A DNA stretch of 30,329 nucleotides from a virus (lineage: Duplodnaviria; Heunggongvirae; Uroviricota; Caudoviricetes), in the IMG/VR virus record IMGVR_UViG_2778261591_000021; one strand, given 5' to 3'. Below, in pieces: positions 10,312 to 24,998 of this stretch. The notes under the pieces are model-generated. The model searched no databases, was not told where the DNA came from, and saw nothing but the letters and a program-made list of their open reading frames with translations. Positions within the stretch are counted from its first letter, which is position 1. Each line of letters begins with the position of its first letter. The position numbers and the translations under genes were made by a program.

Positions 10312-11304
10312 TTACACCACGCGGGCTTCTGTTTCCAGAAGTGCGTCAATTTCGCGAATCGGCACACCACGAAGTGCTGTCCACCATTCGCCTTCTGTCT
10401 CTTTCACGCTGATCGCCAGAGAACTCTTCTCCAGAGATTGCAGGTCAAGCACTTCGTTAATGGTTCTGTTCATGTAGAAAACAGGACGTCCCATCCCACG
10501 ATTTGGGATTCGATGAAGGGCACGAATCATCAGTTTTGCGATATTCGCGGCAGTAGAAGGAGCGTCAAGATTACTGACATCAATGTTTGCGATACGAACT
10601 ACATAGCGCCAGTCACGTAATGTCAGCCCGTTGTCCCACTTATAATGGGTACGATAACCTTCGTACTTGCCGCCATTAGCATCTTCCAGTGTCACCTGGC
10701 CTTTATCTTCCATCTGAATGCCAGCCTTCTGTCCTTTCGGGAAGATGCCATGCACGGTGTTTTCGCCCCACACCACTAACCAGATTGAAGTGTTATCTGT
10801 ACCCGTGCCACCAGCATCAATGATGTTCTGAGCATTACCCGCAGACAGGCTGGAATATCGGGAGGACAGTCCCATAAACTGCTGAGGGTTAACGCTGGAA
10901 TCACCGTAAAACAGTGTCTGCGCCATCGCCTGATTCATCGCTTCAATAAATGCTCGGTCTTCAGACAGACGGAATTCGGCAGTATTACCGTTCAGATCAG
11001 CCAGAGACTTATCGACTTCAGCATAGGTTTCCAGCATGCCAATGGAATCGGTGACCTGCACTGTGGTTGATTTGCTTGGCTGTACGCCATAGTTCAGCAA
11101 ACGCCAGGTAGCGGAAGGTAAACCAGAACGAATGGTGGTTCGGTGTCCGGTAGGAAGGTTTCCTTCAACAAAAGGCATATCCTGAAGAATTGGGTTAGTT
11201 TGACTGAGAAGCTCGATAATCTTATCGACTTTCCCGTTTGGATCGACGCGCTTACCCCAGTCAGCCAGCGTTAGCGCAGTTAAGCCTTTAACAGCCATTG
11301 TCAT
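10312..11304 (-). CDS. major capsid protein, 330 aa
   Basis: Position directly after the scaffold gene, size, and composition typical of HK97-fold capsid proteins; strong operon context. Confidence 0.7.
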   Translation of the reverse strand: MTMAVKGLTALTLADWGKRVDPNGKVDKIIELLSQTNPILQDMPFVEGNLPTGHRTTIRSGLPSATWRLLNYGVQPSKSTTVQVTDSIGMLETYAEVDKSLADLNGNTAEFRLSEDRAFIEAMNQAMAQTLFYGDSSVNPQQFMGLSSRYSSLSAGNAQNIIDAGGTGTDNTSIWLVVWGENTVHGIFPKGQKAGIQMEDKGQVTLEDANGGKYEGYRTHYKWDNGLTLRDWRYVVRIANIDVSNLDAPSTAANIAKLMIRALHRIPNRGMGRPVFYMNRTINEVLDLQSLEKSSLAISVKETEGEWWTALRGVPIREIDALLETEARVV

Positions 11305-14631: not shown

Positions 14632-14708
14632 GTGGCATTAGCTCAGTTGGACAGAGCAACCGCCTTCTAAGCGGTTGGTCGCAGGTTCGAATCCTGCATG
14701 CCACGCCA
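14632..14708 (+). tRNA. tRNA-Arg (anticodon TCT, reads AGA)
   Basis: Full cloverleaf: 7-bp acceptor stem GTGGCAT/ATGCCAC, D-arm GCTC/GAGC, anticodon stem ACCGC/GCGGT with loop CTTCTAA, T-arm GCAGG-TTCGAAT-CCTGC, discriminator G and encoded CCA. Resembles but is not identical to an enterobacterial argU-type tRNA as recalled from memory. Confidence 0.85.
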
Positions 14709-14751: not shown

Positions 14752-14795
14752 GGCGGTGATGGTTTCCCTTGAAGGACTATCACCGCCCTTTTTAC
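14752..14795 (+). terminator. rho-independent terminator downstream of the tRNA
   Basis: GGCGGTGAT...ATCACCGCC stem followed by CTTTTTA. Confidence 0.55.
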
Positions 14796-14870: not shown

Positions 14871-14896
14871 CGCCCGGTTCGCCGGGCATTTTTTTG
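14871..14896 (+). terminator. rho-independent terminator
   Basis: GCCCGG-ttcg-CCGGGC stem followed by ATTTTTTT. Confidence 0.65.
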
Positions 14897-14900
14897 ATTG

Positions 14901-14929
14901 ATGACCGCAAATTACCTTAAAGGTATAAT
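14901..14929 (+). promoter_or_regulatory. promoter-like element with a perfect -10 TATAAT (14924-14929) overlapped by an operator-like palindrome
   Basis: Palindrome TTACCTTAAAGGTAT at 14912-14926; a possible -35 ATGACC lies 17 bp upstream of the -10. Sits immediately before the moron ORF. Confidence 0.4.
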
Positions 14930-14930
14930 C

Positions 14931-15749
14931 ATGAAAAACTTCAAGGTAATTAGCATGTTTGAATCGTTCAAAGAGCTGTTTTTATCTACTGCCAATACTG
15001 CCGTGAATCGAGCCAAAAACCCTGTGCTTGGTGCTTTTGTTATGTCCTGGTGCGCCTTCAACTGGAAATCAATTCTTTATCTATTTTTTAGCAAATCAAA
15101 CATAATAGATAAAATTTCATATATCTCAGATAACAGCACATGGAAAACTGTTATGTTTTATCCATGCTTATCTGTAATTGCTATCTGCTGCCTATTACCA
15201 TGGGTAAACAATATCATTAACGTATGGCAAGCAAAGCCTCTTGATAATAATGACTCAATCGAAAATCACCTGAAGGCAAGAAAAATCCAGCGTGAAACAA
15301 GACTGCAGAGGTTATTGGCTAAAAAAGATGTTACATACGACAAAGTTAAGACTGGCGCGGAAAAAGACATCCAAGAGATGAAAGAAGAGATTATTCGATC
15401 AAAGAATAGTATGGGGGAATTGACTGCCGAGTTGAAAGCTAAAGATGACGAATTGAGATCCGCCAGTGCACAGTTAGCAGCTCTAAATCATTCATTAAAA
15501 GAGATATCGGAAACTCTTGGAAGAATGAATGAGGCATATAAGACCCTCCAAAATGATTTCGACGAATACAAACTCAAATACCCTGAAAAATCTCAAATAA
15601 AAAGCCTTGCACTTGGCAACGGCCAAACAATTAGCAACGTTTTGGAGCAACACAACTTATCCGGATTAAAATCTGGTAAGCCAAACGTTTTTAATAACTT
15701 TGGTGTTCTATCTGGATTATCAGGTTTCGAGGATAAAAATAAAGACTAA
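14931..15749 (+). CDS. AT-rich accessory (moron) protein, 272 aa: two predicted TM helices plus a long coiled-coil domain; function unknown
   Basis: Opposite strand to all flanking structural genes and visibly AT-rich relative to them. ATG at 14931 has AAAGG upstream; the track ORF starts at TTG 14898. Hydrophobic segments are VLGAFVMSWCAFNWKSILYLFF and VMFYPCLSVIAICCLLPWV; heptad-like charged region from about residue 100 to 220. Confidence 0.6.
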   Translation: MKNFKVISMFESFKELFLSTANTAVNRAKNPVLGAFVMSWCAFNWKSILYLFFSKSNIIDKISYISDNSTWKTVMFYPCLSVIAICCLLPWVNNIINVWQAKPLDNNDSIENHLKARKIQRETRLQRLLAKKDVTYDKVKTGAEKDIQEMKEEIIRSKNSMGELTAELKAKDDELRSASAQLAALNHSLKEISETLGRMNEAYKTLQNDFDEYKLKYPEKSQIKSLALGNGQTISNVLEQHNLSGLKSGKPNVFNNFGVLSGLSGFEDKNKD

Positions 15750-17221
15750 GCATATGGATCGTACTCGGTAAGCGCCTTGCCTTGCTGGTTCTGCTGCCCG
15801 GGAAGTCGCAGGCGCTTTGACACCGGGAAAGCAAACGTCAGCAGTAGCGCATCGCCTTTACCAGGCGAACGCCCAAGTCGTTCTTTGATATCTTCCTTCG
15901 GTTCGATAACGATTTTACCGTCCACGCGAACTTTGTACTCTGCCGCCGACAGATCGTCCGCTGTTTCCTGGTCATCCAGCATCCCGCCCAACCTCAGCCA
16001 TGTCTTGCATGAGTTGAACATCTCCCCGCGCTTGTTAAGCATCTGCGGGTCAGTGGACGCACCGCCGAACGGAACAAGTTGCCATGTACGCCCCCAGCCA
16101 TCACCGATTGACTTCAAACCGGTTCCGTAACCGAAGTCGATGAACACCGCGTCAGCCTGATACTGGTCTTCAAAGTCAGCGATACGCTTCGCCATAATCA
16201 GATCGTCGGTAGTCTTGTTGCCAGTCCATAGCACCTTACTATGCAACCCCTGCCGCAGGTATATCACCGCGTCATCAACGCCTGAATATGCCGGGTCAAC
16301 ACCGATTATCACCGGAGCATGTGCCACCTGCGCAGCGGTTACCACCCGTTTCATTGCCTCATCAGTAAGACCGGTAGGGATAAACTGCAATTCAGATGCA
16401 TCAGGGAATATGCCGCGCACACGGATTTTAACGAAGTCGCTGTCTTCCCCGTAGTCATCAACCCATTTCTGCAACTGCTGTTTGTTAGTACCTTCCACCG
16501 TCCGGCTGTCAATCTGCGCAGTTTTCCAGCGGTGTTTGTATTTGCGGAAACATTCGCGAAAACGCCCGGTATTACGTGTAGGGTTTCCGAACGCCACCCA
16601 GATAATCTCAGTGTCTTCGTCCGTAAGCGCACCCTCAGCAACTTCCCACACCAGATCCGCAATGTTCGACGCTTCATCGAATACCACGATGATGCGTTTG
16701 CGCTCGTTGTGTAGTCCGGCGAATGCCTCAGTGTTGTGCTCAGACCAGGGGATTGCGTCAGCTCGCCACCGCTTGTCGTGCCCAGGATCATTGCTGTACA
16801 TCGCAGTAGCGGTACAGGTAAACCAGTCTTTCGTGATAGCAAGGTTCGACCACTTGATAATTTCCGGCCAGGTCTTCGTTCGTAGCTGGTTGTCGGTGTT
16901 GGCGGTCACCACGACCTTACAATCCTCGCAAGTGGACATGCCCCAGTTGATCAGCATTGAGATGAATGCGGATTTACCAATACCATGACCAGAAGCGCGT
17001 GCCAGCATAAGCGGCTGATAGCGCGTCTCTGGATTCTGCAGGTGATCACGTATCTCTCGGAACGCATCAGCCTGCCACTGACGTGGGCCGGTAGCATGTG
17101 CCAGTTCAGTCCCCTCTTCCCCCCACGGGAACGCATATAGGGCATAGCCAAGCGGATCGTGAGTGAACCCTGCAATATCCTCGATCAACTGCTCTTCAGG
17201 AGATAACGCTGTATCTGTCAC
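15746..17221 (-). CDS. terminase large subunit, 491 aa
   Basis: Walker A-like GHGIGKS, ATPase and nuclease acidic blocks (VVFDEAS, GVDPAYSG), and position after the small subunit with overlapping stop/start. Confidence 0.9.
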   Translation of the reverse strand: MTDTALSPEEQLIEDIAGFTHDPLGYALYAFPWGEEGTELAHATGPRQWQADAFREIRDHLQNPETRYQPLMLARASGHGIGKSAFISMLINWGMSTCEDCKVVVTANTDNQLRTKTWPEIIKWSNLAITKDWFTCTATAMYSNDPGHDKRWRADAIPWSEHNTEAFAGLHNERKRIIVVFDEASNIADLVWEVAEGALTDEDTEIIWVAFGNPTRNTGRFRECFRKYKHRWKTAQIDSRTVEGTNKQQLQKWVDDYGEDSDFVKIRVRGIFPDASELQFIPTGLTDEAMKRVVTAAQVAHAPVIIGVDPAYSGVDDAVIYLRQGLHSKVLWTGNKTTDDLIMAKRIADFEDQYQADAVFIDFGYGTGLKSIGDGWGRTWQLVPFGGASTDPQMLNKRGEMFNSCKTWLRLGGMLDDQETADDLSAAEYKVRVDGKIVIEPKEDIKERLGRSPGKGDALLLTFAFPVSKRLRLPGQQNQQGKALTEYDPYA

Positions 17222-17814
17222 TGATTACCATCCTGACGTTCTTTGAGTCGCTTCCTGGCTGCTGCTATGCGATCAGCAATTGTCACATTCACATTAACAT
17301 CCAGACGTTCTTTGAACGCGTTGACATCAACATGCTTACCAATCAGCTCAAGGTTCTTCACCTTGTCAGGCCATTTAATTTTTTTGAGGATTGTCTCTAT
17401 CGAATCCTCGTTCATGTTCATGATGGTCGATGACAGATCAAAGCCACTAAGCGTAGTGCGCCAGATTTTCGGCCACTCACGGATTGGTTTAAGGCTCCCA
17501 TCGTCGTTGAGGATGTCGATCACGTCCATCTGGTCGATCTCCACCAGGCGCATGAGAACGTAATCAGCACTGACGCGCATTCGTTTGTTGCGCTCCTCCA
17601 TCAACTCGGCAATCCGTTTTTGAATGCGTTCATCGCGCATCATGACACTGGCTTTAACTGCCGCTGTATTTGGGGAGAATCCTGCGTTAATCGCTGCCTG
17701 AGTCTGGTTTTCAGGCGTTTTGATGTATGACTGGCAATAAGCCTCCTGCATTGCTGTTAGTGGCTTAAATTGCGTTGATTTGCGTTTATAGGTTTTAGGT
17801 TCAGCAGGCATCAT
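17218..17814 (-). CDS. terminase small subunit
   Basis: Terminase small-subunit-like sequence with a basic helical C-terminus. Start re-assigned to the ATG at 17814, because the track's TTG-initiated extension to 17892 contains a terminator hairpin. Confidence 0.75.
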   Translation of the reverse strand: MMPAEPKTYKRKSTQFKPLTAMQEAYCQSYIKTPENQTQAAINAGFSPNTAAVKASVMMRDERIQKRIAELMEERNKRMRVSADYVLMRLVEIDQMDVIDILNDDGSLKPIREWPKIWRTTLSGFDLSSTIMNMNEDSIETILKKIKWPDKVKNLELIGKHVDVNAFKERLDVNVNVTIADRIAAARKRLKERQDGNQ

Positions 17815-17821
17815 AACCACC

Positions 17822-17853
17822 GTGGTAATAGTTACCGTTGTGGTAATAGTACC
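17822..17853. repeat. two direct repeats GTGGTAATAGT(T)ACC just upstream of the terminase small-subunit start
   Basis: Copies at 17822-17836 and 17840-17853. Each contains everted GGTAA/TTACC half-sites related to the operator palindrome. Confidence 0.5.
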
Positions 17854-17856
17854 ATG

Positions 17857-17883
17857 CAAAATAAAGCCGCCATAGTTGGCGGC
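17857..17883 (-). terminator. rho-independent terminator immediately upstream of the packaging/late operon
   Basis: Minus strand: GCCGCC-aactat-GGCGGC stem followed by TTTATTTT. Confidence 0.55.
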
Positions 17884-17924
17884 AGTATTCAAAACCCATC
17901 AAATTTATCATGCATAATCTACTC

Positions 17925-17936
17925 GTGACATGTCAC
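17925..17936. repeat. perfect 12-bp palindrome GTGACATGTCAC overlapping the stop of the 115-aa gene
   Basis: Read directly from the sequence; candidate protein-binding site. Confidence 0.5.
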
Positions 17937-18280
17937 ACTATTAATTTCGTTTCATGCCAGCCTTTAGTCACCCAGCATTGCGAGTCACCATTACACGGGC
18001 ATGAATTAACTGGAACTCTCTCGCCGCACTTACCGCAACATTTTCTGCTGATCGATTTTATACGCCCGCGCACGCGTGCATCATCCTGGCGGATCAGTAA
18101 CGCTATATACTCACCAAATTCGTAAGGCGCACGCCCGGGGCGACGCGTGGCACAGTTCCGCGCTAGCATTTCCTGCTCCTGCTTATCCAGCACCAGTTCA
18201 ATTTTGCGCTCACCGGCGGCGGACTGCCGAGCGCGCTGCGCGGCTTTGCGTTCTGCGGGGGATTTAGCCACGAATCGCAC
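17933..18280 (-). CDS. basic protein with C-terminal Cys cluster (CCGKCGERVPVNSCPCNGDSQC), 115 aa; function unknown
   Basis: GTG start in the track with a weak RBS; the true start is uncertain (next ATG is codon 38). Arg/Lys-rich N-terminus and a zinc-ribbon-like C-terminus. Last gene before the terminase genes. Confidence 0.4.
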   Translation of the reverse strand: MRFVAKSPAERKAAQRARQSAAGERKIELVLDKQEQEMLARNCATRRPGRAPYEFGEYIALLIRQDDARVRGRIKSISRKCCGKCGERVPVNSCPCNGDSQCWVTKGWHETKLIV

Positions 18281-18386
18281 TCCACGCCAGATTGATTAAT
18301 GACTCCCAGGTAATATAAACCCGGATACCAGCAGCCAGGCCGAAACCAATCACCATGGCATAAAGCAGAGCGTTGCACTTGTTCAT
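18264..18386 (-). CDS. 40-aa single-pass membrane peptide (MNKCNALLYAMVIGFGLAAGIRVYITWESLINLAWSAIRG)
   Basis: Not in the ORF track (under 60 aa). ATG overlaps the upstream TGA stop as TGATGA, with AGGGGG 7 nt upstream. Hydrophobic core typical of a TM helix. Confidence 0.35.
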   Translation of the reverse strand: MNKCNALLYAMVIGFGLAAGIRVYITWESLINLAWSAIRG

Positions 18387-18949
18387 CACTTCACCCCCTG
18401 CGGCGGTTCCGGTAGCGGCATCCAGTGGGTTACACCGCCAATTGGTTCATCGTCGTCGTACTCCAATGCGGATATATAGAACCCGTCACGACGAGAATAA
18501 GAAATCCCGGACATTACAATGCCATCCGAAACAACAATAATGTCACCCGTTTCTTCCGGCATTCGCTCACTACAGCTTATCCAACTATCCGGAGTTACCG
18601 GATAGTTGCGCATTGCGACCTTTAATGCCTCATAGAAGCAACCTTTCAGATTGTTGAACTGACGCCCATTTAGCGGGACGTGTTCAGTCAGCATGTTGTG
18701 TAATTTCCATGCCGCGTCGTTTACTTCGCTGGATGACAGGGGAGGCAACTTGTAAGTTTGGCTTACAGGTTCGGCACCATGAAGCATGGCGGCGCGGAGT
18801 TTCTGTATCTCCCGTGCCATTATTGCGTCCTGACGAGGAGTGAACATATCACCTGCAATAATTCTGTTTAGTTCCTCGTCAGTGAACTCATAATCATCAG
18901 GAACATTGTGAACCTCAGCATAAAGAGGCTTTTTGGTAGAAATGGTCAT
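18386..18949 (-). CDS. DUF551-type phage protein, 187 aa
   Basis: C-terminal region (ISCSERMPEE...DGFYIS...HWMPLPEPP) matches my recollection of DUF551 as found in lambdoid accessory genes. Confidence 0.5.
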   Translation of the reverse strand: MTISTKKPLYAEVHNVPDDYEFTDEELNRIIAGDMFTPRQDAIMAREIQKLRAAMLHGAEPVSQTYKLPPLSSSEVNDAAWKLHNMLTEHVPLNGRQFNNLKGCFYEALKVAMRNYPVTPDSWISCSERMPEETGDIIVVSDGIVMSGISYSRRDGFYISALEYDDDEPIGGVTHWMPLPEPPQGVK

Positions 18950-20972: not shown

Positions 20973-21006
20973 TAAAAAGATCGTCGATTCATGCCGATCT
21001 ATTTTT
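20973..21006. terminator. hairpin AGATCG...CGATCT flanked by T-runs on both strands (bidirectional terminator-like)
   Basis: 6-bp stem with 11-nt loop overlapping the HNH gene stop; TTTTTA follows on the minus strand and ATTTTTCAT on the plus strand. Confidence 0.35.
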
Positions 21007-21597
21007 CATCAGTGATTCATAAAACTTTTGCCACTTATGCCGACCGAAATTAGCCTTCGAGTTACAGCTCGAACAAAGGCAAATAAGGTTCTCCTGACGA
21101 CAGTCTTGCTTGTCGTAATTGATGTGATGAGTTGTTAGCCTTTTGTCTGTTCCATCACAACCTGGGTTCTGACAAGTAAAACCATCTCGCTCAATAACCC
21201 TCTTGCTCGTTTCTCGGAAATCCCACGGATACGGCAATCTCGATAATCCACCAGACCAGTTTGGATTTCCTTCCCCCTTCATCAGAGAAGAACGCATTAT
21301 GTTGGAACACTGTTTCGAGCAGCATTTATGACGCTTCTCATGACTCAAGAAAACGGAGAACGAAGATCCGCATACGCAGCATATTTTTAATACTCGCTTT
21401 AGTTCCCGATTTACCGTCTTGCCTCGCTGTGAAATTCCTACACACTGAAGTGAGCAGAACCTTGAAGATGAGTTGGCTCGCTTAACCTGATATTGCCTGC
21501 CACATACGGAGCAAACCTTTTCGATTTTCCCACCCTTCCAATTCGGGTTTTTATCACCGGATACAATCAATCCCGCAGCATTGGGCTTCTCGCTCAT
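20989..21597 (-). CDS. HNH endonuclease with N-terminal zinc-ribbon repeats, 202 aa
   Basis: Repeated NPNWKGG/NPNWSGG motifs and CxxC pairs; C-terminal HNH core (CQNPGC...THHINYDK...NLICLCSSCNSK). Confidence 0.7.
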   Translation of the reverse strand: MSEKPNAAGLIVSGDKNPNWKGGKIEKVCSVCGRQYQVKRANSSSRFCSLQCVGISQRGKTVNRELKRVLKICCVCGSSFSVFLSHEKRHKCCSKQCSNIMRSSLMKGEGNPNWSGGLSRLPYPWDFRETSKRVIERDGFTCQNPGCDGTDKRLTTHHINYDKQDCRQENLICLCSSCNSKANFGRHKWQKFYESLMKNRSA

Positions 21598-21950: not shown

Positions 21951-22027
21951 TTACCCCTGAGGTAATTAAAAACCACATAAGACACGAAATCAATAGATTT
22001 TAGTATATTTTATTACCCGCCAGGTAA
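21951..22027 (-). promoter_or_regulatory. internal promoter (TTGATT-N17-TTTAAT on the minus strand) flanked by two TTACC-N5-GGTAA operator-like palindromes
   Basis: Sites at 21951-21965 (overlaps the start region and RBS of the DUF1064 gene) and 22013-22027 (upstream of the -35). Confidence 0.45.
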
Positions 22028-22064: not shown

Positions 22065-22865
22065 TTACTTGATAAATCCTGCCGCCTTTCCCCGCCTGTA
22101 TTCCTCCATCAGCCACTGTGCCGGTGTTATTCCACCCAGGGTGGCGGCGTTAGGCATGCACCCGAAACTTCGCCCTGGTGGATGGTAAACGTCTCTCCCT
22201 GTGTCCGGAGGTGTACTCATGGGTTCTGGCTTTGCCTGTATGCTGATCACCGGATCGGGTATCTGCTGTCCGGAAGCCACCTTTTTCGCCCAATCATCGA
22301 GCAACCTGCGCGCGTGTTTCTCAACCTCAATCTCGCTAAGCTGGCGCTGATACATTGCACGGCGGGTATCACATACGACCCAGTACATAACCGGATGTCG
22401 CCACGGGAATCTTTCTGGACCACCAGGATATAAACTTTTTTCCTTGCTGTACCGGTGAAACTCCGCCATCACATCGTCAATGGTGACGCCAAGAACCATC
22501 TTGCTGTCTTTGCACCACTTGATGAATTGCCCAGGCGACGGCCAGAACGGAGATTCACTGGCGCGGGCGTGGCGCATACCAGCAGAAACCTGTTCACGGG
22601 TTCGGATCCCACCTTCGGCAAACGCAGCAATCCACTGCTGTTTTGCAGCAACTTCCTGCTCTGGCGTCTTCAGGTTGGTTACCACTGCCGCCGGAAACAG
22701 CTGTTTCAGCTGTTTGAAAAGGGCATCAACAAGCCTCTCTGCTGACATGTTCACCACATTGTCATTGTTGACGTACTGATGCTCATAACCTGACATGCGA
22801 GAAAGGGCTTCTCCGTCATGGTTTTGTATCGCGGTAAAAACGTTGTTCACAAGAAATCCTCCCAT
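22065..22865 (-). CDS. replication protein P-like (replicative helicase loader), 266 aa
   Basis: Recalled similarity to lambda P blocks (SPGQF.xWC, YP..FPW....YW.V, RRLLDDW...G..IP.PV) and position directly after the O-like gene. The first 19 nt overlap the O-like gene. Confidence 0.7.
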   Translation of the reverse strand: MGGFLVNNVFTAIQNHDGEALSRMSGYEHQYVNNDNVVNMSAERLVDALFKQLKQLFPAAVVTNLKTPEQEVAAKQQWIAAFAEGGIRTREQVSAGMRHARASESPFWPSPGQFIKWCKDSKMVLGVTIDDVMAEFHRYSKEKSLYPGGPERFPWRHPVMYWVVCDTRRAMYQRQLSEIEVEKHARRLLDDWAKKVASGQQIPDPVISIQAKPEPMSTPPDTGRDVYHPPGRSFGCMPNAATLGGITPAQWLMEEYRRGKAAGFIK

Positions 22866-23662
22866 GCTTCAGGGCTGTTCCAGTGCGGAACGTTGTTATC
22901 AGGTAATGTTGATTGCTTCTGTCTGCTAATCTGCAGCCGCCTTGCCAGCTTCTGCTCCCACTGTGCCTGATGGTATGCCTTACCCTCAGCCATCCAGTAA
23001 ATTCTGAACTCTGCAAGTTCCTGTGCCGTTGGCAGACTGTCCAGGTAGATCCCCTGCAATGAGCTTTTCCGAAGAAAGTCATCTGATGGCTGCCATTGTT
23101 CATGCATGACAAATTTGCCTAATTGCCCTGGCCCACCAGGAGGAACAAAGTTATTCATCACGGCGTTGTTTGCGCCGGGGTCATGATGCACAGAATCCCC
23201 GTTTTTTGTCCTGCTCTCCCTCTCTTGGTTAAATGACTGGTTATATGACTGGTTCTGGATCCCGTTTTTGGGATCATTCAACATCCCGTTTTTGGGATCA
23301 TTCAACATCCCGTTTTTGGGTATATTCCCGTTTTCGGGTATATTCCCGTTTTCGGGTTCATTGCCCCCCTCCCGGTTGCCTTTAATGTTCCCGTTTTTGG
23401 TTATATTAAGAGAGAAAACCCGCACTCTTTTTGTCGCTCCCTTTCTATCTCCGGTATCTGAAATAAGCCCCATTTTCATGAGCGATATAAGCCCGGCCTG
23501 CACGGTTTTTTTATTCAGGCAAGTGTCTTTAACGAGGCGTTCTATGCTGGGGTAGCAGAGGTTATATTCATCGGCTCTGTCAGCCATCGAGAGCAGTATG
23601 AGCTTTAATGATGAGCTACCTGGATCTGTCTCCCAGGCCCAATCTGTTGCATGTCTGCTCAT
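22847..23662 (-). CDS. replication initiator O-like protein with internal iteron array, 271 aa
   Basis: N-terminal HTH-type initiator region; central PENGNI/PKNGMLND peptide repeats are encoded by the DNA iterons; position before the P-like gene. Confidence 0.65.
   Translation of the reverse strand: MSRHATDWAWETDPGSSSLKLILLSMADRADEYNLCYPSIERLVKDTCLNKKTVQAGLISLMKMGLISDTGDRKGATKRVRVFSLNITKNGNIKGNREGGNEPENGNIPENGNIPKNGMLNDPKNGMLNDPKNGIQNQSYNQSFNQERESRTKNGDSVHHDPGANNAVMNNFVPPGGPGQLGKFVMHEQWQPSDDFLRKSSLQGIYLDSLPTAQELAEFRIYWMAEGKAYHQAQWEQKLARRLQISRQKQSTLPDNNVPHWNSPEAWEDFL
23259..23407. repeat. origin-like iteron array: six copies of core CCCGTTTT(T/C)GG, including two perfect 24-bp tandem units
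   Basis: Units ATCCCGTTTTTGGGATCATTCAAC at 23259-23282 and 23283-23306, with further copies near 23309, 23327, 23345 and 23390; a direct repeat ATGACTGGTT x2 is adjacent. Confidence 0.7.
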
Positions 23663-24295: not shown

Positions 24296-24358
24296 TCACC
24301 CATAAGGTAACAAAAATCAAGGATAGTTACCTGTGGGGTGCATTTACCTGTTGGGTAA
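24296..24358. promoter_or_regulatory. immunity-region operator cluster: three TTACC-N5-GGTAA-type sites between the divergent cro-like and repressor-like genes
   Basis: TCACCCATAAGGTAA at 24296-24310, TTACCTGTGGGGTGC at 24327-24341, TTACCTGTTGGGTAA at 24344-24358. Confidence 0.55.
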
Positions 24359-24413: not shown

Positions 24414-24998
24414 ATGAAAAGTATCCAGGACGTCCGCAGGCAAAATCTCAACGACTTGATCGACCGTGAATTCAATGGTGTTCAGACGCGGATGGCAGAA
24501 AAACTTGGAACTCAGGCAAATCTGGTAAACCGCTGGGCTCTTGGCAAGAAGGTTATCGGCGACCAGGTTGCGCGAAAAATTGAAGCTGCCGCCAATAAAC
24601 CCCGTAACTGGCTTGATATCGATCGCTCGCTTTCTCAGGAAGGTTTTCAGCCTGTCGGCCCAAGCGACATTGGTCAGCTGGCGGCTCACAACCTGGAACG
24701 CTGGATGAGCGAAAGCCGCGACCTTTCAACGCAGGGAAAACTTCACCGCGCATCCGGCGTCGCCCAGGTGACAATCAGTCGCCTGTTAAACAATGAGGTC
24801 AGCGTTTCCATTTCCACCCTGGAGAATGTTGCATCCGCATTCGGGCGTCACGGATATGAACTACTGATTCACCCGCACGACCCTGCGACTATCAACTATG
24901 ACCGCTCACGCTACGCATTGTTACCCGAAACCGAGAAAGCAAAGATCGAAAGTTACATTGAATTTGTCATCAACCAGAACGAAAAAAGCAAACAATAA
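24414..24998 (+). CDS. repressor-like protein with two tandem XRE-type HTH domains and no LexA/S24 peptidase domain, 194 aa
   Basis: HTH 1: TRMAEKLGTQANLVNRWALGKK. HTH 2: KLHRASGVAQVTISRLLNNEVSVSISTLENVASAFG. Occupies the cI position and is followed by its own terminator. Confidence 0.6.
   Translation: MKSIQDVRRQNLNDLIDREFNGVQTRMAEKLGTQANLVNRWALGKKVIGDQVARKIEAAANKPRNWLDIDRSLSQEGFQPVGPSDIGQLAAHNLERWMSESRDLSTQGKLHRASGVAQVTISRLLNNEVSVSISTLENVASAFGRHGYELLIHPHDPATINYDRSRYALLPETEKAKIESYIEFVINQNEKSKQ

Follow-up and report, generated by a model that had tools for sequence, protein, structure and literature searches.

The stretch of DNA analysed here (30,329 nucleotides, hereafter the window) is an epsilon15/phiV10-type (Uetakevirus) prophage. 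The region of interest is the junction between its early-right operon and its packaging operon, the first of the late operons. The first-pass annotation had placed four elements in front of the terminase small-subunit gene, namely an open reading frame, a palindrome, a terminator and direct repeats. All four are present on the minus strand, in that order and at those coordinates. The features that the text refers to are the following.

18264..18389, minus strand: 41-aa membrane ORF, phrog_5525
17933..18271, minus strand: gene of a basic protein, probably of 112 aa, with a predicted ribbon-helix-helix (RHH) fold and a Cys cluster, phrog_536; the mechanical ORF is 17933..18280 (115 aa)
17925..17936, unstranded: perfect 12-bp palindrome GTGACATGTCAC, spanning the TGA stop of the RHH gene; consensus GTGAC-N2-GTCAC
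17857..17883, minus strand: intrinsic terminator closing the early (right) operon, with a 7-bp GC-rich stem, a 4-nt loop and a U tract
17846..17854, minus strand: TGgTACTAT, a candidate promoter (extended -10 type) for the packaging operon
17832..17846, unstranded: operator O1, TTACCACAACGGTAA, a perfect and conserved TTACC-N5-GGTAA
17814..17828, unstranded: operator O2, TTACCACGGTGGTTA, with 1 mismatch; overlies the Shine-Dalgarno of terS (GGTGG) and adjoins the first ATG
17218..17811, minus strand: terS (terminase small subunit, Terminase_2; Pfam PF03592, E 1.1e-29; phrog_51), which opens the packaging operon
15746-17221: terL, directly after terS in the packaging operon
24414..24998, plus strand: prophage repressor of the SPC32H Rep type, with two HTH domains (Pfam HTH_3; phrog_8)

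The start of terS agrees with the TL-2011b annotation. In epsilon15-type phages, the phrog_536 gene is the last early gene and lies directly before terS. It had also been noticed that neither a Q-like gene nor a lysis cassette is recognisable at this position. This absence is real, and it follows from the gene order that is normal for epsilon15-type phages. The GenBank record of epsilon15 has the lysis genes further on, past those for tailspike and O antigen, and annotates no Q gene. As for RNA families, tRNA was the sole match in an Rfam scan of the window.

The terminator was correctly recognised. Its sequence (17883-17857) is GCCGCCAACTATGGCGGC then TTTATTTTG, and the hairpin has 7 pairs (6 of them GC) and a loop of 4, followed by UUUAUUUU. 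The hairpin is present in the centroid fold, its stem is unchanged in 8 relatives, and the epsilon15 record annotates the equivalent hairpin as a rho-independent terminator. A second extended -10-like sequence, TGaTAAATT at around 17907-17915, which would give a short RNA up to the terminator, was discarded, as the relatives have TGATGAATT there.

Repressor operators and a candidate packaging promoter

The direct repeats are two exact 11-nt copies of ACTATTACCAC on the minus strand, 18 bp apart (17822-17832 and 17840-17850). The GGTAA/TTACC half-sites described in them are present, but they are not novel. They represent the palindromic immunity operator of the prophage repressor, TTACC-N5-GGTAA, in two tandem copies; this motif is found in 11 copies in the window vs 0.39 expected. 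The epsilon15 site 12-27, equivalent to O1, is annotated as protein_bind “repressor”. The repressor sites in that GenBank record, which are predictions, are found before terS, gp3 and gp20 and around the repressor gene.

The window repressor matches SPC32H Rep (PDB 5d50) over residues 1-190 with an E-value of 3.5e-42. SPC32H Rep is a tetramer that binds palindromic operators (PMC9638917). As in an SPC32H-type system, an over-represented palindrome lies on both sides of the repressor gene (operator pairs at 24296/24344 and 25056/25118) and is found again at other promoters; such pairs border the repressor and cro-like genes. The repressor is a clear homologue, and its operators are positioned as the sites annotated in epsilon15, including the one before terS. 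This part of the locus is a member of the described SPC32H/epsilon15 system (Rep repressor, dispersed operators and antirepressor), from which nothing essential differs, and the window repressor is expected to occupy O1 and O2.

The candidate promoter is a consensus match only, with no -35 element, and the last T of its hexamer is the first base of O1. In 8 relatives, epsilon15-like loci among them, the motif TGnTA(C/G)TAT, both operators and the ATG show no change, whereas the adjoining DNA varies. The same layout, with a -10 hexamer running into TACC, recurs in the window at the leftward promoter (AATTAT|TACC) and at 21965 (TTTAAT|TACC). From this arrangement, we infer that the promoter is active. 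A control region ahead of the packaging operon, as the first-pass annotation had it, holds up, in the form of a terminator followed by a repressor-guarded candidate promoter.

In terms of distribution, epsilon15-type loci have 9-13 operator copies per 20 kb, with a pair before terS in each. We looked for covariation between the sites before terS and the immunity type; the 11 epsilon15-type loci (terS 66-89%) share one operator type, hence they offer no contrast. Two more distant loci from Providencia and Morganella (L035 and L040, terS 44-49%) are organised differently, with no TTACC/GGTAA before terS. Since the operators before terS appear to be those of the repressor, the packaging operon is most likely switched mainly through a local promoter under direct repression.

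The phrog_536 protein

The first-pass annotation proposed a basic protein of 115 aa with a Cys cluster. The ORF, its basic character (pI 9.63, K+R = 23) and the Cys cluster (7 Cys) are all there, but the length is probably 112 aa, with the start at a GTG at 18271. This start is preferred because homologues are mostly 112 aa. The GTG overlaps the stop of the 41-aa ORF (GTGGCTAA) and has GGAG 8 nt upstream; the overlap suggests translational coupling between the two.

A homology search places the protein in PHROG 536, with a full-length profile match (E 8.6e-54, residues 5-114 of 115). It has the length of about 112 aa and the conserved CxxC...C...C pattern of this family. C79, C82 and C99 are invariant or nearly so across the family alignment, and in most of the sequences shown there a Cys recurs in or close to the C91 column. 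Homologues that are 35-95% identical include epsilon15 gp49, phiV10 gp55, N15 gp46, phiKO2 gp45 and ZF40 gp22, for which neither a function nor a binding site has been described. PHROG 536 homologues carry the label “transcriptional regulator”, which is an automatic or remote-homology name. Scans of the window protein against Pfam and NCBIfam and a PDB sequence search gave no match, and no defence system was matched by PADLOC. The gene is not mentioned in the ZX5 and epsilon15 cryo-EM literature.

In terms of structure, the protein is an RHH DNA-binding fold with a C-terminal Cys cluster, according to an AF2 monomer model with a pLDDT of 92. This model was built from a diverse alignment, which we used instead of close homologues alone (pLDDT 64). 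It has the beta-alpha-alpha fold of the RHH superfamily (CopG/Arc/MetJ). Sequence profiles do not assign the window protein to this superfamily, and among 57 family members only 1-2 have marginal matches to RHH_5, RHH_1 and RepB (E 0.013-0.07). A Foldseek comparison with the PDB found nothing significant, the best hit being TTHA0139 (E 0.85). The phrog_536 protein differs from RHH repressors (P22 Arc/Mnt, CopG, MetJ, ParD/MazE) in having an additional basic N-terminal helix and the Cys cluster. Its presumed site is also placed differently, at the gene's 3' end and where operons finish instead of at the promoter of its own gene. The N-terminal helix is conserved (R8, R13). The residues of the beta-strand are not conserved in the family, although the arms of the palindrome are invariant. 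As these strand residues normally read the bases, this counts against recognition of the palindrome by the protein, which would have to rely on the N-terminal helix with R8 and R13.

The C-terminal Cys module probably binds zinc. This half of the protein is weakly similar to the zinc fingers of TraR/DksA, which are factors of the RNA-polymerase secondary channel (HMMER E 0.04; hhalign 47-65%). The order of helix, CxxCGxx(I/L)P...C motif and helix of the TraR/DksA family (PF01258) aligns along nearly all of TraR, with C37, C40 and C58 of TraR facing C79, C82 and C99. The counterpart of TraR C61 is not a Cys, with C91 being a possible substitute ligand, and the window protein has no DksA/TraR zinc site of the form CxxC-N17-19-CxxC.

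The proposal of the Cys-rich protein as a candidate late regulator survives in part. A DNA-binding regulator is credible, but protein and palindrome are not specific to late-operon junctions. For annotation purposes, phrog_536 could now be entered as a family of predicted RHH DNA-binding proteins that has a defined motif.

The palindrome and its distribution

The window contains 5 perfect 12-bp palindromes vs 7.4 expected. The palindrome has no significance from its count alone; its significance rests on conservation. It is invariant among the relatives of the window (alignment A4). In homologous loci, we found 65 copies of GTGAC-N2-GTCAC in 895 kb, against about 0.85 expected, with constant arms and a variable central 2 bp. 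In 32 of 48 genome loci the palindrome is at or just past the stop of the homologous gene, whatever follows downstream. The same is seen for ZF40 gp22 and phiKO2 gp45 and in a Yersinia P2-like phage, with no more than 35-65% identity between the proteins. In IMG/VR, 42 of the 120 occurrences of the 14-mer abut a phrog_536 gene. Gene and palindrome are co-inherited in epsilon15-like, lambdoid, P2-like, N15-like and Vibrio phages, which agrees with the earlier reading of the palindrome as a real cis element. The string itself had no match in the literature searched.

The majority of sites are at the 3' ends of ORFs. A terminator-like hairpin is found within 60 nt of 24 out of 68 sites, compared to 7.7% of random positions, with a distance between palindrome and terminator of 0 to 41 nt; only about one third of the sites thus adjoin a recognisable terminator. 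Sites within genes were also seen, in the 3' part of a cII-like gene and in ZF40 gp08. Genes that end in extra palindromes are annotated mostly as families without an assigned function.

The number of copies is low. The window has 1, and in many genomes a single copy is present within 20 kb. Epsilon15 has exactly 3, each at the end of a transcription unit.

Epsilon15 site 1: over the gp49 stop, then a terminator
Epsilon15 site 2: past terL, beside a bidirectional hairpin
Epsilon15 site 3: over the gp18 stop, with a terminator abutting

Several sites, including epsilon15 sites 2 and 3 and those of P2-like prophages, lie in intervals between convergent units. ZF40 also has 3 copies, all in the early region and 9-19 kb from the terminase. 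As for context, in P2-type phages gene and site end the early operon and face the portal gene. The pair is also found upstream of NinB-Q, in phages with their own Q-like gene, and beside integrase genes.

Because gene and site are co-inherited, we infer that the palindrome is the binding site of the phrog_536 protein; co-inheritance could instead reflect linkage to another function. The spacing of 7 bp between half-sites is tighter than in usual RHH operators. A sigma70-like sequence over the palindrome (GTGACA-18-CATGAT) was rejected as a promoter, being a match at chance level whose spacing to the palindrome is not conserved.

Function of the protein and the palindrome

Two independent devices would account for these observations, a reading to which we give a probability of about 0.6. 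The first is a sigma70 extended -10 promoter positioned past the early-operon terminator, with two tandem operators covering the start region of the promoter and the ribosome-binding site of terS. In the lysogen, direct binding of the SPC32H-type repressor would keep the packaging operon off, and inactivation of the repressor would free it together with the early promoters. The second is a boundary element. The last early gene would make the RHH protein, whose cognate site would be the palindrome at its own 3' end, with more copies at other operon ends. Bound beside intrinsic terminators, the protein would most likely tune the transcription that crosses from one unit to the next. For this effect on read-through, we tentatively prefer blocking or insulation, that is, a reinforced and orientation-independent termination, with antitermination as the alternative. 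The sites that have no recognisable terminator nearby, those within genes and the single copy in the window speak against this second device.

What is new here is the co-inheritance of protein and palindrome, as the repressor sites and the terminator are ordinary and already annotated in epsilon15. An invariant 12-bp site travels with one small family through podo-, myo- and siphovirus-type prophages and through P2-like and N15-like elements. Since one site is kept across such varied phages, the pair probably has a general function, for instance in insulating or gating transcription units. Its site is simple to find and to mutate. With a candidate promoter carrying two operators on the one hand and a separate protein/site pair on the other, late-gene timing in Q-less epsilon15-type phages becomes testable.

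Among the alternatives, and in line with the late-gene switch of the first-pass annotation, we consider it unlikely that the protein is a substitute for Q, which binds the palindrome and lets RNA polymerase read through into terS-terL and other late units. Gene, site and terminator do lie just before the next temporal class, this being terS in epsilon15-type phages and NinB-HNH-Q in lambdoid/ZF40-type phages. The arrangement is analogous in position to lambda Q/qut/tR' and tR2, where a regulator gene ends the early operon and a terminator gates the next class. At many loci, and at sites 1 and 3 of epsilon15, transcription meets the palindrome before the terminator. Further points in favour are the lack of an annotated Q in epsilon15 and the weak TraR/DksA likeness of the C-terminal half. 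However, read-through would be unneeded, as the late units carry putative promoters of their own that are guarded by the repressor. In P2-like prophages, gene, site and terminator point towards a convergent portal/terminase operon, and read-through into it would do harm. Epsilon15 site 2 comes after its hairpin in the late direction, and other sites are inside genes. Unlike at a Q site, the palindrome is not at a promoter (the promoter-like match over it is at chance level), and phrog_536 has no Q homology, with no match to a Q-type antiterminator in Pfam, Q families included, or in NCBIfam. No dsDNA-bound factor is known to act on polymerase in the middle of an operon. Finally, the pair also occurs in phages with their own Q-like gene, which often lies downstream, in P2-type phages and next to integrase genes. 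A Q substitute is thus not supported as a general reading and would be limited to epsilon15-type phages.

A bolder version of the boundary element is that phrog_536 and its palindromes form a previously unrecognised regulatory system in many temperate Enterobacterales and Vibrio phages. In it, a DNA-tethered RHH protein with a TraR/DksA-like polymerase-binding zinc module would decide at each terminator between stopping and continuing. This we regard as unlikely. If true, it would be a site-specific control of transcription-unit boundaries, unlike N, Q, RfaH and Rho-type mechanisms.

Homology to Ogr, which with P4 Delta represents the zinc-finger late activators of the P2/P4 type, was rejected: hhalign gave 0.3% against Ogr. 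The sites of these activators are TGT-N12-ACA at -55 of late promoters, whereas the site here is TGT-N8-ACA, with a variable distance between palindrome and promoter (about 91 bp here and about 74 bp in epsilon15).

It is quite improbable that the protein has an architectural role, bridging 2-3 palindromes by looping or condensation in the manner of MatP/matS, or that the palindromes mark module boundaries at which recombination takes place. MatP-matS of Enterobacteria has in common with our pair an RHH protein, GTGAC/GTCAC half-sites (identical in both) and sites that are few and dispersed, in the phages at module junctions. However, matS is a 13-bp GTGAC[AG]N[TC]GTCAC (PMC3603311), with the required spacer of 3 bp, while each of the 65 sites here has 12 bp, with 2 bp in the centre. 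The 895 kb contain no more than two N3 forms (L035 GTGACTTTGTCAC and L045 GTGACAAAGTCAC); they lie some 10 kb away from the gene, and RNY fits neither of them. The domain architecture differs, as the phrog_536 protein has neither the four-helix bundle nor the coiled coil of MatP. Homology to MatP was rejected, with an hhalign value of 0.3% and no MatP among the PDB profile matches. Moreover, bridging is hard to reconcile with the many genomes that have one copy only within 20 kb.

The suggestion of a packaging-initiation region fared worse. We consider it highly improbable that the terminase uses the palindrome, or the region as a whole, as a pac/cos site, with the small protein as a packaging accessory factor. 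The palindrome immediately precedes terS here and precedes it by 19 nt in Vibrio phage K308, it lies near the early-operon end adjoining the portal gene in P2-like prophages, and the GenBank record of phiV10 opens within it. On the other hand, two of the three epsilon15 copies are far from terS, with one lying 17 kb deep in the structural genes, and the three of ZF40 are all distant from the terminase. The pair also accompanies unrelated terminases and adjoins Q or integrase genes. The opening differs between the two records, following the terminator in epsilon15 and the stop codon in phiV10, so these are conventions and not mapped ends.

Lastly, an action on RNA, with the basic zinc protein binding the transcribed palindrome 5' of the hairpin and altering hairpin formation, mRNA stability or translation termination, is scarcely credible: RNA binding is known for small zinc proteins such as Com of phage Mu, the palindrome is often over a stop codon or 0-4 nt from the terminator hairpin, and it reads identically in RNA from either direction, but the predicted fold is a DNA-binding one, the arms are invariant and do not covary, the RNA stem would have just 4 bp, and the distance to the terminator is far from fixed.

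The identity of the palindrome half-sites with those of matS is a curiosity. Prophages otherwise avoid matS (PMC3603311).

Gene order at the packaging junction

Relatives of the region 17700-18500 found by megablast are phiv142-3, EC.W1-9, TL-2011b, ZX5 and phiV10 (90-96% identity), all epsilon15/phiV10-type phages (Uetakevirus). The four elements reported in the first-pass annotation, namely the 115-aa ORF, the palindrome, the terminator and the direct repeats, are all found in the window. The features, in minus-strand order, are:

18386-18949, minus strand: DUF551 protein gene
between the DUF551 gene and the 115-aa ORF, minus strand: 41-aa membrane ORF
17933-18280, minus strand: 115-aa ORF (family phrog_536), before terS
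17925-17936: 12-bp palindrome GTGAC-N2-GTCAC, containing the TGA stop of the 115-aa ORF
next: terminator hairpin GCCGCC-AACU-AUGGCGGC, then UUUAUUUU
directly 3' of the terminator: candidate extended -10, TGgTACTAT, its final T doubling as the first base of O1
17832-17846: O1, TTACCACAACGGTAA, from the inverted-repeat reading of the repeat region
17814-17828: O2, TTACCACGGTGGTTA, from the same reading
17218-17811, minus strand: terS (Terminase_2)
15746-17221, minus strand: terL

The epsilon15 homologue of the 115-aa ORF is gp49, the final gene ahead of gene 1 (terS). The epsilon15 record places the lysis cassette far off, beyond the tailspike and O-antigen genes, and lists no Q gene. The absence of Q and lysis genes at this place, remarked on earlier, does hold; since epsilon15 is arranged likewise, it is the normal gene order of the phage type. 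Overall, the region is an ordinary epsilon15-type junction, and the epsilon15 and RefSeq annotation already lists its operators, terminator and gene label as predictions. The terminator is unchanged across relatives, while the 25-45 bp separating it from the palindrome vary, with indels. The layout of terminator, operator and next gene is found again behind both the cro-like gene and the repressor gene.

Three other features of the prophage were recorded. A tRNA-Arg gene (anticodon TCT; 14632-14708, plus strand), oriented against the late genes, separates the terL-side moron from the portal operon; terminator-like hairpins follow at 14752-14787 and 14872-14887. TGGGATCATTCAACATCCCGTTTTTGGG occurs twice in tandem (23269-23312, plus strand) within the O-like replication initiator gene (22847-23662), and the two copies look like iterons of the phage origin. 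Lastly, a 202-aa Cys-rich HNH-endonuclease-like ORF (20989-21597, minus strand) belongs to the early-right operon. This ORF also has matches to HNH models of ZorE type from the Zorya defence system, probably due only to the common HNH domain.

Operators and a candidate late promoter

The two 11-nt direct repeats are exact and 18 bp apart. They had been noted for their GGTAA/TTACC half-sites; they are better read as predicted operators of the prophage repressor, TTACC-N5-GGTAA, annotated at the equivalent place in epsilon15. Allowing at most one mismatch, this motif has 11 copies in the window against 0.39 expected, a number reached in 0 of 100 shuffles. Operator pairs flank both sides of the gene at 24414-24998, setting it apart from the cro-like gene and the leftward operon; further copies stand in front of the RusA-like gene, the portal operon and a plus-strand moron. 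The product of 24414-24998 is a repressor with two HTH domains and homology to SPC32H Rep (5d50, E 3.5e-42). SPC32H Rep is a tetramer that binds palindromic sites and is dismantled by an antirepressor (PMC9638917). The epsilon15 GenBank record has "protein_bind: repressor" at places equivalent to the window operators, among them 12-27 (ATTACCAAAACGGTAA), directly ahead of terS, and sites ahead of gp3 and the tailspike gene. Furthermore, 3-13 motif copies were counted in each of 11 genome loci of epsilon15 type whose terS is close, with at least one before terS in 11/11 and a pair in most.

The extended -10 is kept as TGnTA(C/G)TAT in 8 relatives that differ elsewhere, the epsilon15 version being TGtTACTAT. 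The same junction of -10 hexamer and TACC is found at the predicted leftward promoter (TTGACA-17-AATTAT, then TACC) and at the promoter before the RusA-like gene (TTGATT-17-TTTAAT, then TACC). The terS Shine-Dalgarno, GGTGG, falls within O2. Most simply, the packaging operon would be served by a predicted promoter of its own, directly blocked by the prophage repressor; we infer the promoter's activity from these features.

A 13-nt near-repeat on the minus strand, ATTTTGCATGGTA and ATTATGCATGATA (17850-17862 and 17906-17918), lies ahead of both extended -10-like elements. The upstream element, TGaTAAATT, is found in the window alone, and relatives carry TGATGAATT. Providencia and Morganella prophages (10987-11022 in locus L035; 10791-10826 in L040) have a distant Rep (33% identity). 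Their terS start sits in another inverted repeat, TGGTCATAAT...ATTATGACCA, and the word enriched near their repressor gene is GATAAACAA; the same terminase type thus has another control layout there.

The phrog_536 protein and the palindrome linked to its gene

The most likely start of the 115-aa ORF is the GTG at 18271. This start overlaps the upstream ORF's stop (GTGGCTAA) and gives 112 aa, the length of most of 722 homologues. The 115-aa ORF product has a pI of 9.63 and 7 Cys. Pfam and NCBIfam scans gave no match; PHROG 536, labelled "transcriptional regulator", matches it end to end. An exhaustive profile search delimits a compact family of 183 representatives. C79 and C82 never vary among 57 diverse members, and C99, R8 and R13 (both in an N-terminal basic helix), E54, L59 and P87 are nearly invariant; a Cys at or near position 91 recurs in most family sequences shown. 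With these 57 sequences as alignment, AlphaFold2 (pLDDT 92) predicts a helix at 5-18, an extended segment, helices at 30-42 and 52-74, the Cys cluster and a helix at 100-108. The C-terminal half (residues 49-110) has borderline matches to YbiI and TraR (E 0.04; hhalign 46.6% and 65%), sharing the CxxCGxx(I/L)P...G..C signature but missing the fourth canonical Cys. Homology to MatP and to Ogr was rejected (hhalign 0.3% for each).

Perfect 12-bp palindromes are unremarkable as such in the window (5 vs 7.4 expected). As for GTGAC-N2-GTCAC, we compared 48 genome loci encoding a homologue (51-84% identity, many Enterobacterales genera), with an epsilon15-type terminase downstream in just 13. The palindrome is at, or at most 14 nt after, the gene's stop codon in 30/48; in two others it is 81 and 205 nt past the match end. 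It stays at the gene end regardless of which genes come next; where the stop codon is outside it, it follows a few bases downstream. Its arms are invariant, with variable central bases (AT, CT, AC, GT, AG, GC, TG). Distant homologues also have it at the gene end (ZF40 gp22; phiKO2 gp45, of the N15 gp46 family; a Yersinia P2-like phage), and Vibrio phage K308 carries it twice, once at 19 nt before terS. Based on ten fixed bases, about 0.85 copies are expected in the 895 kb of homologue loci, and 65 were found. In reverse, when IMG/VR was scanned for the 14-mer TGTGACATGTCACG, 46 of the first 120 stretches carry the gene, and the 14-mer adjoins its 3' end in 42. From this joint occurrence of palindrome and gene, we infer that the palindrome is the binding site of the phrog_536 protein.

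We found no description of the palindrome, whose sequence string is absent from the papers searched, of its linkage to phrog_536, or of the phrog_536 fold. The new part is a predicted pair of ribbon-helix-helix (RHH) regulator and cognate palindrome, oddly placed and widely distributed. The half-sites are identical to those of matS, a striking likeness, but the spacer differs by 1 bp, the protein has no detectable homology to MatP, and none of the 65 copies fits the 13-bp matS pattern.

Several epsilon15-type prophages (L010, L011, L016, L018) carry a small inserted gene about 60-110 nt past the GTGAC-N2-GTCAC palindrome and ahead of the terS terminator and operators; in front of the inserted gene is a LexA-box-like palindrome, TACTGT-N8-ACAGTA. 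The GTGAC-N2-GTCAC palindrome remains with the upstream gene. The inserted gene may be an SOS-controlled moron or antirepressor.

Placement of the palindrome and possible roles

Epsilon15 has exactly three copies, listed below.

Palindrome copies in epsilon15
Copy 1: over the gp49 stop, 22 nt ahead of the terminator
Copy 2: just past terL, with a bidirectional hairpin on one side and the 3' end of gp50, a reverse gene, on the other
Copy 3: over the stop of gp18, the last structural-operon gene, adjoining the operon's terminator

Most sites are at the 3' ends of ORFs that share the strand of the phrog_536 gene. In 24/68 a hairpin with T tract lies no more than 60 nt away, which is true of 7.7% of random positions. 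Some are intragenic, in the 3' part of a cII-like gene (several prophages) and in ZF40 gp08. Depending on phage type, gene, site and terminator are followed by terS, by NinB-HNH-Q-like genes, by a convergent P2-like portal/terminase operon or by an integrase.

This distribution probably reflects a protein acting at transcription-unit boundaries, where its binding may block or insulate between units or may cause antitermination. We tentatively prefer blocking or insulation: the predicted fold is of a DNA-binding repressor type, the site is symmetric, and in many cases it is flanked by convergent units, for which read-through would be harmful. Antitermination, suggested earlier, is possible given the position directly ahead of the next temporal gene class and the weakly TraR-like C-terminal half. 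A promoter-proximal activator does not fit, with promoters about 91 bp away here, about 74 bp in epsilon15 and hundreds of bp at other sites. A packaging signal is unlikely: several copies are far from terminase genes, and the points at which the GenBank records begin, inside the palindrome for phiV10 and after the terminator for epsilon15, are conventional rather than mapped ends. The phiV10 record (L009 1-12, L001 end) opens right after the TGA stop, and its copy differs by one base (GTGA, then CATGTTAC).

The second copy, after terL, is present in epsilon15-type genome loci. It is missing from the window because a plus-strand moron overlaps the terL end. This 272-283-aa ORF (14898/14931-15749, plus strand; phrog_4780, unknown function) is convergent with terL, with a 4-nt stop overlap, and stands where L014 and like relatives have another reverse gene together with their second GTGACATGTCAC copy. 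It has just weak coiled-coil-type matches to DndD and LmuB, and an operator copy at 14912 overlaps its promoter-like site, ATGACC-17-TATAAT (14901-14929).
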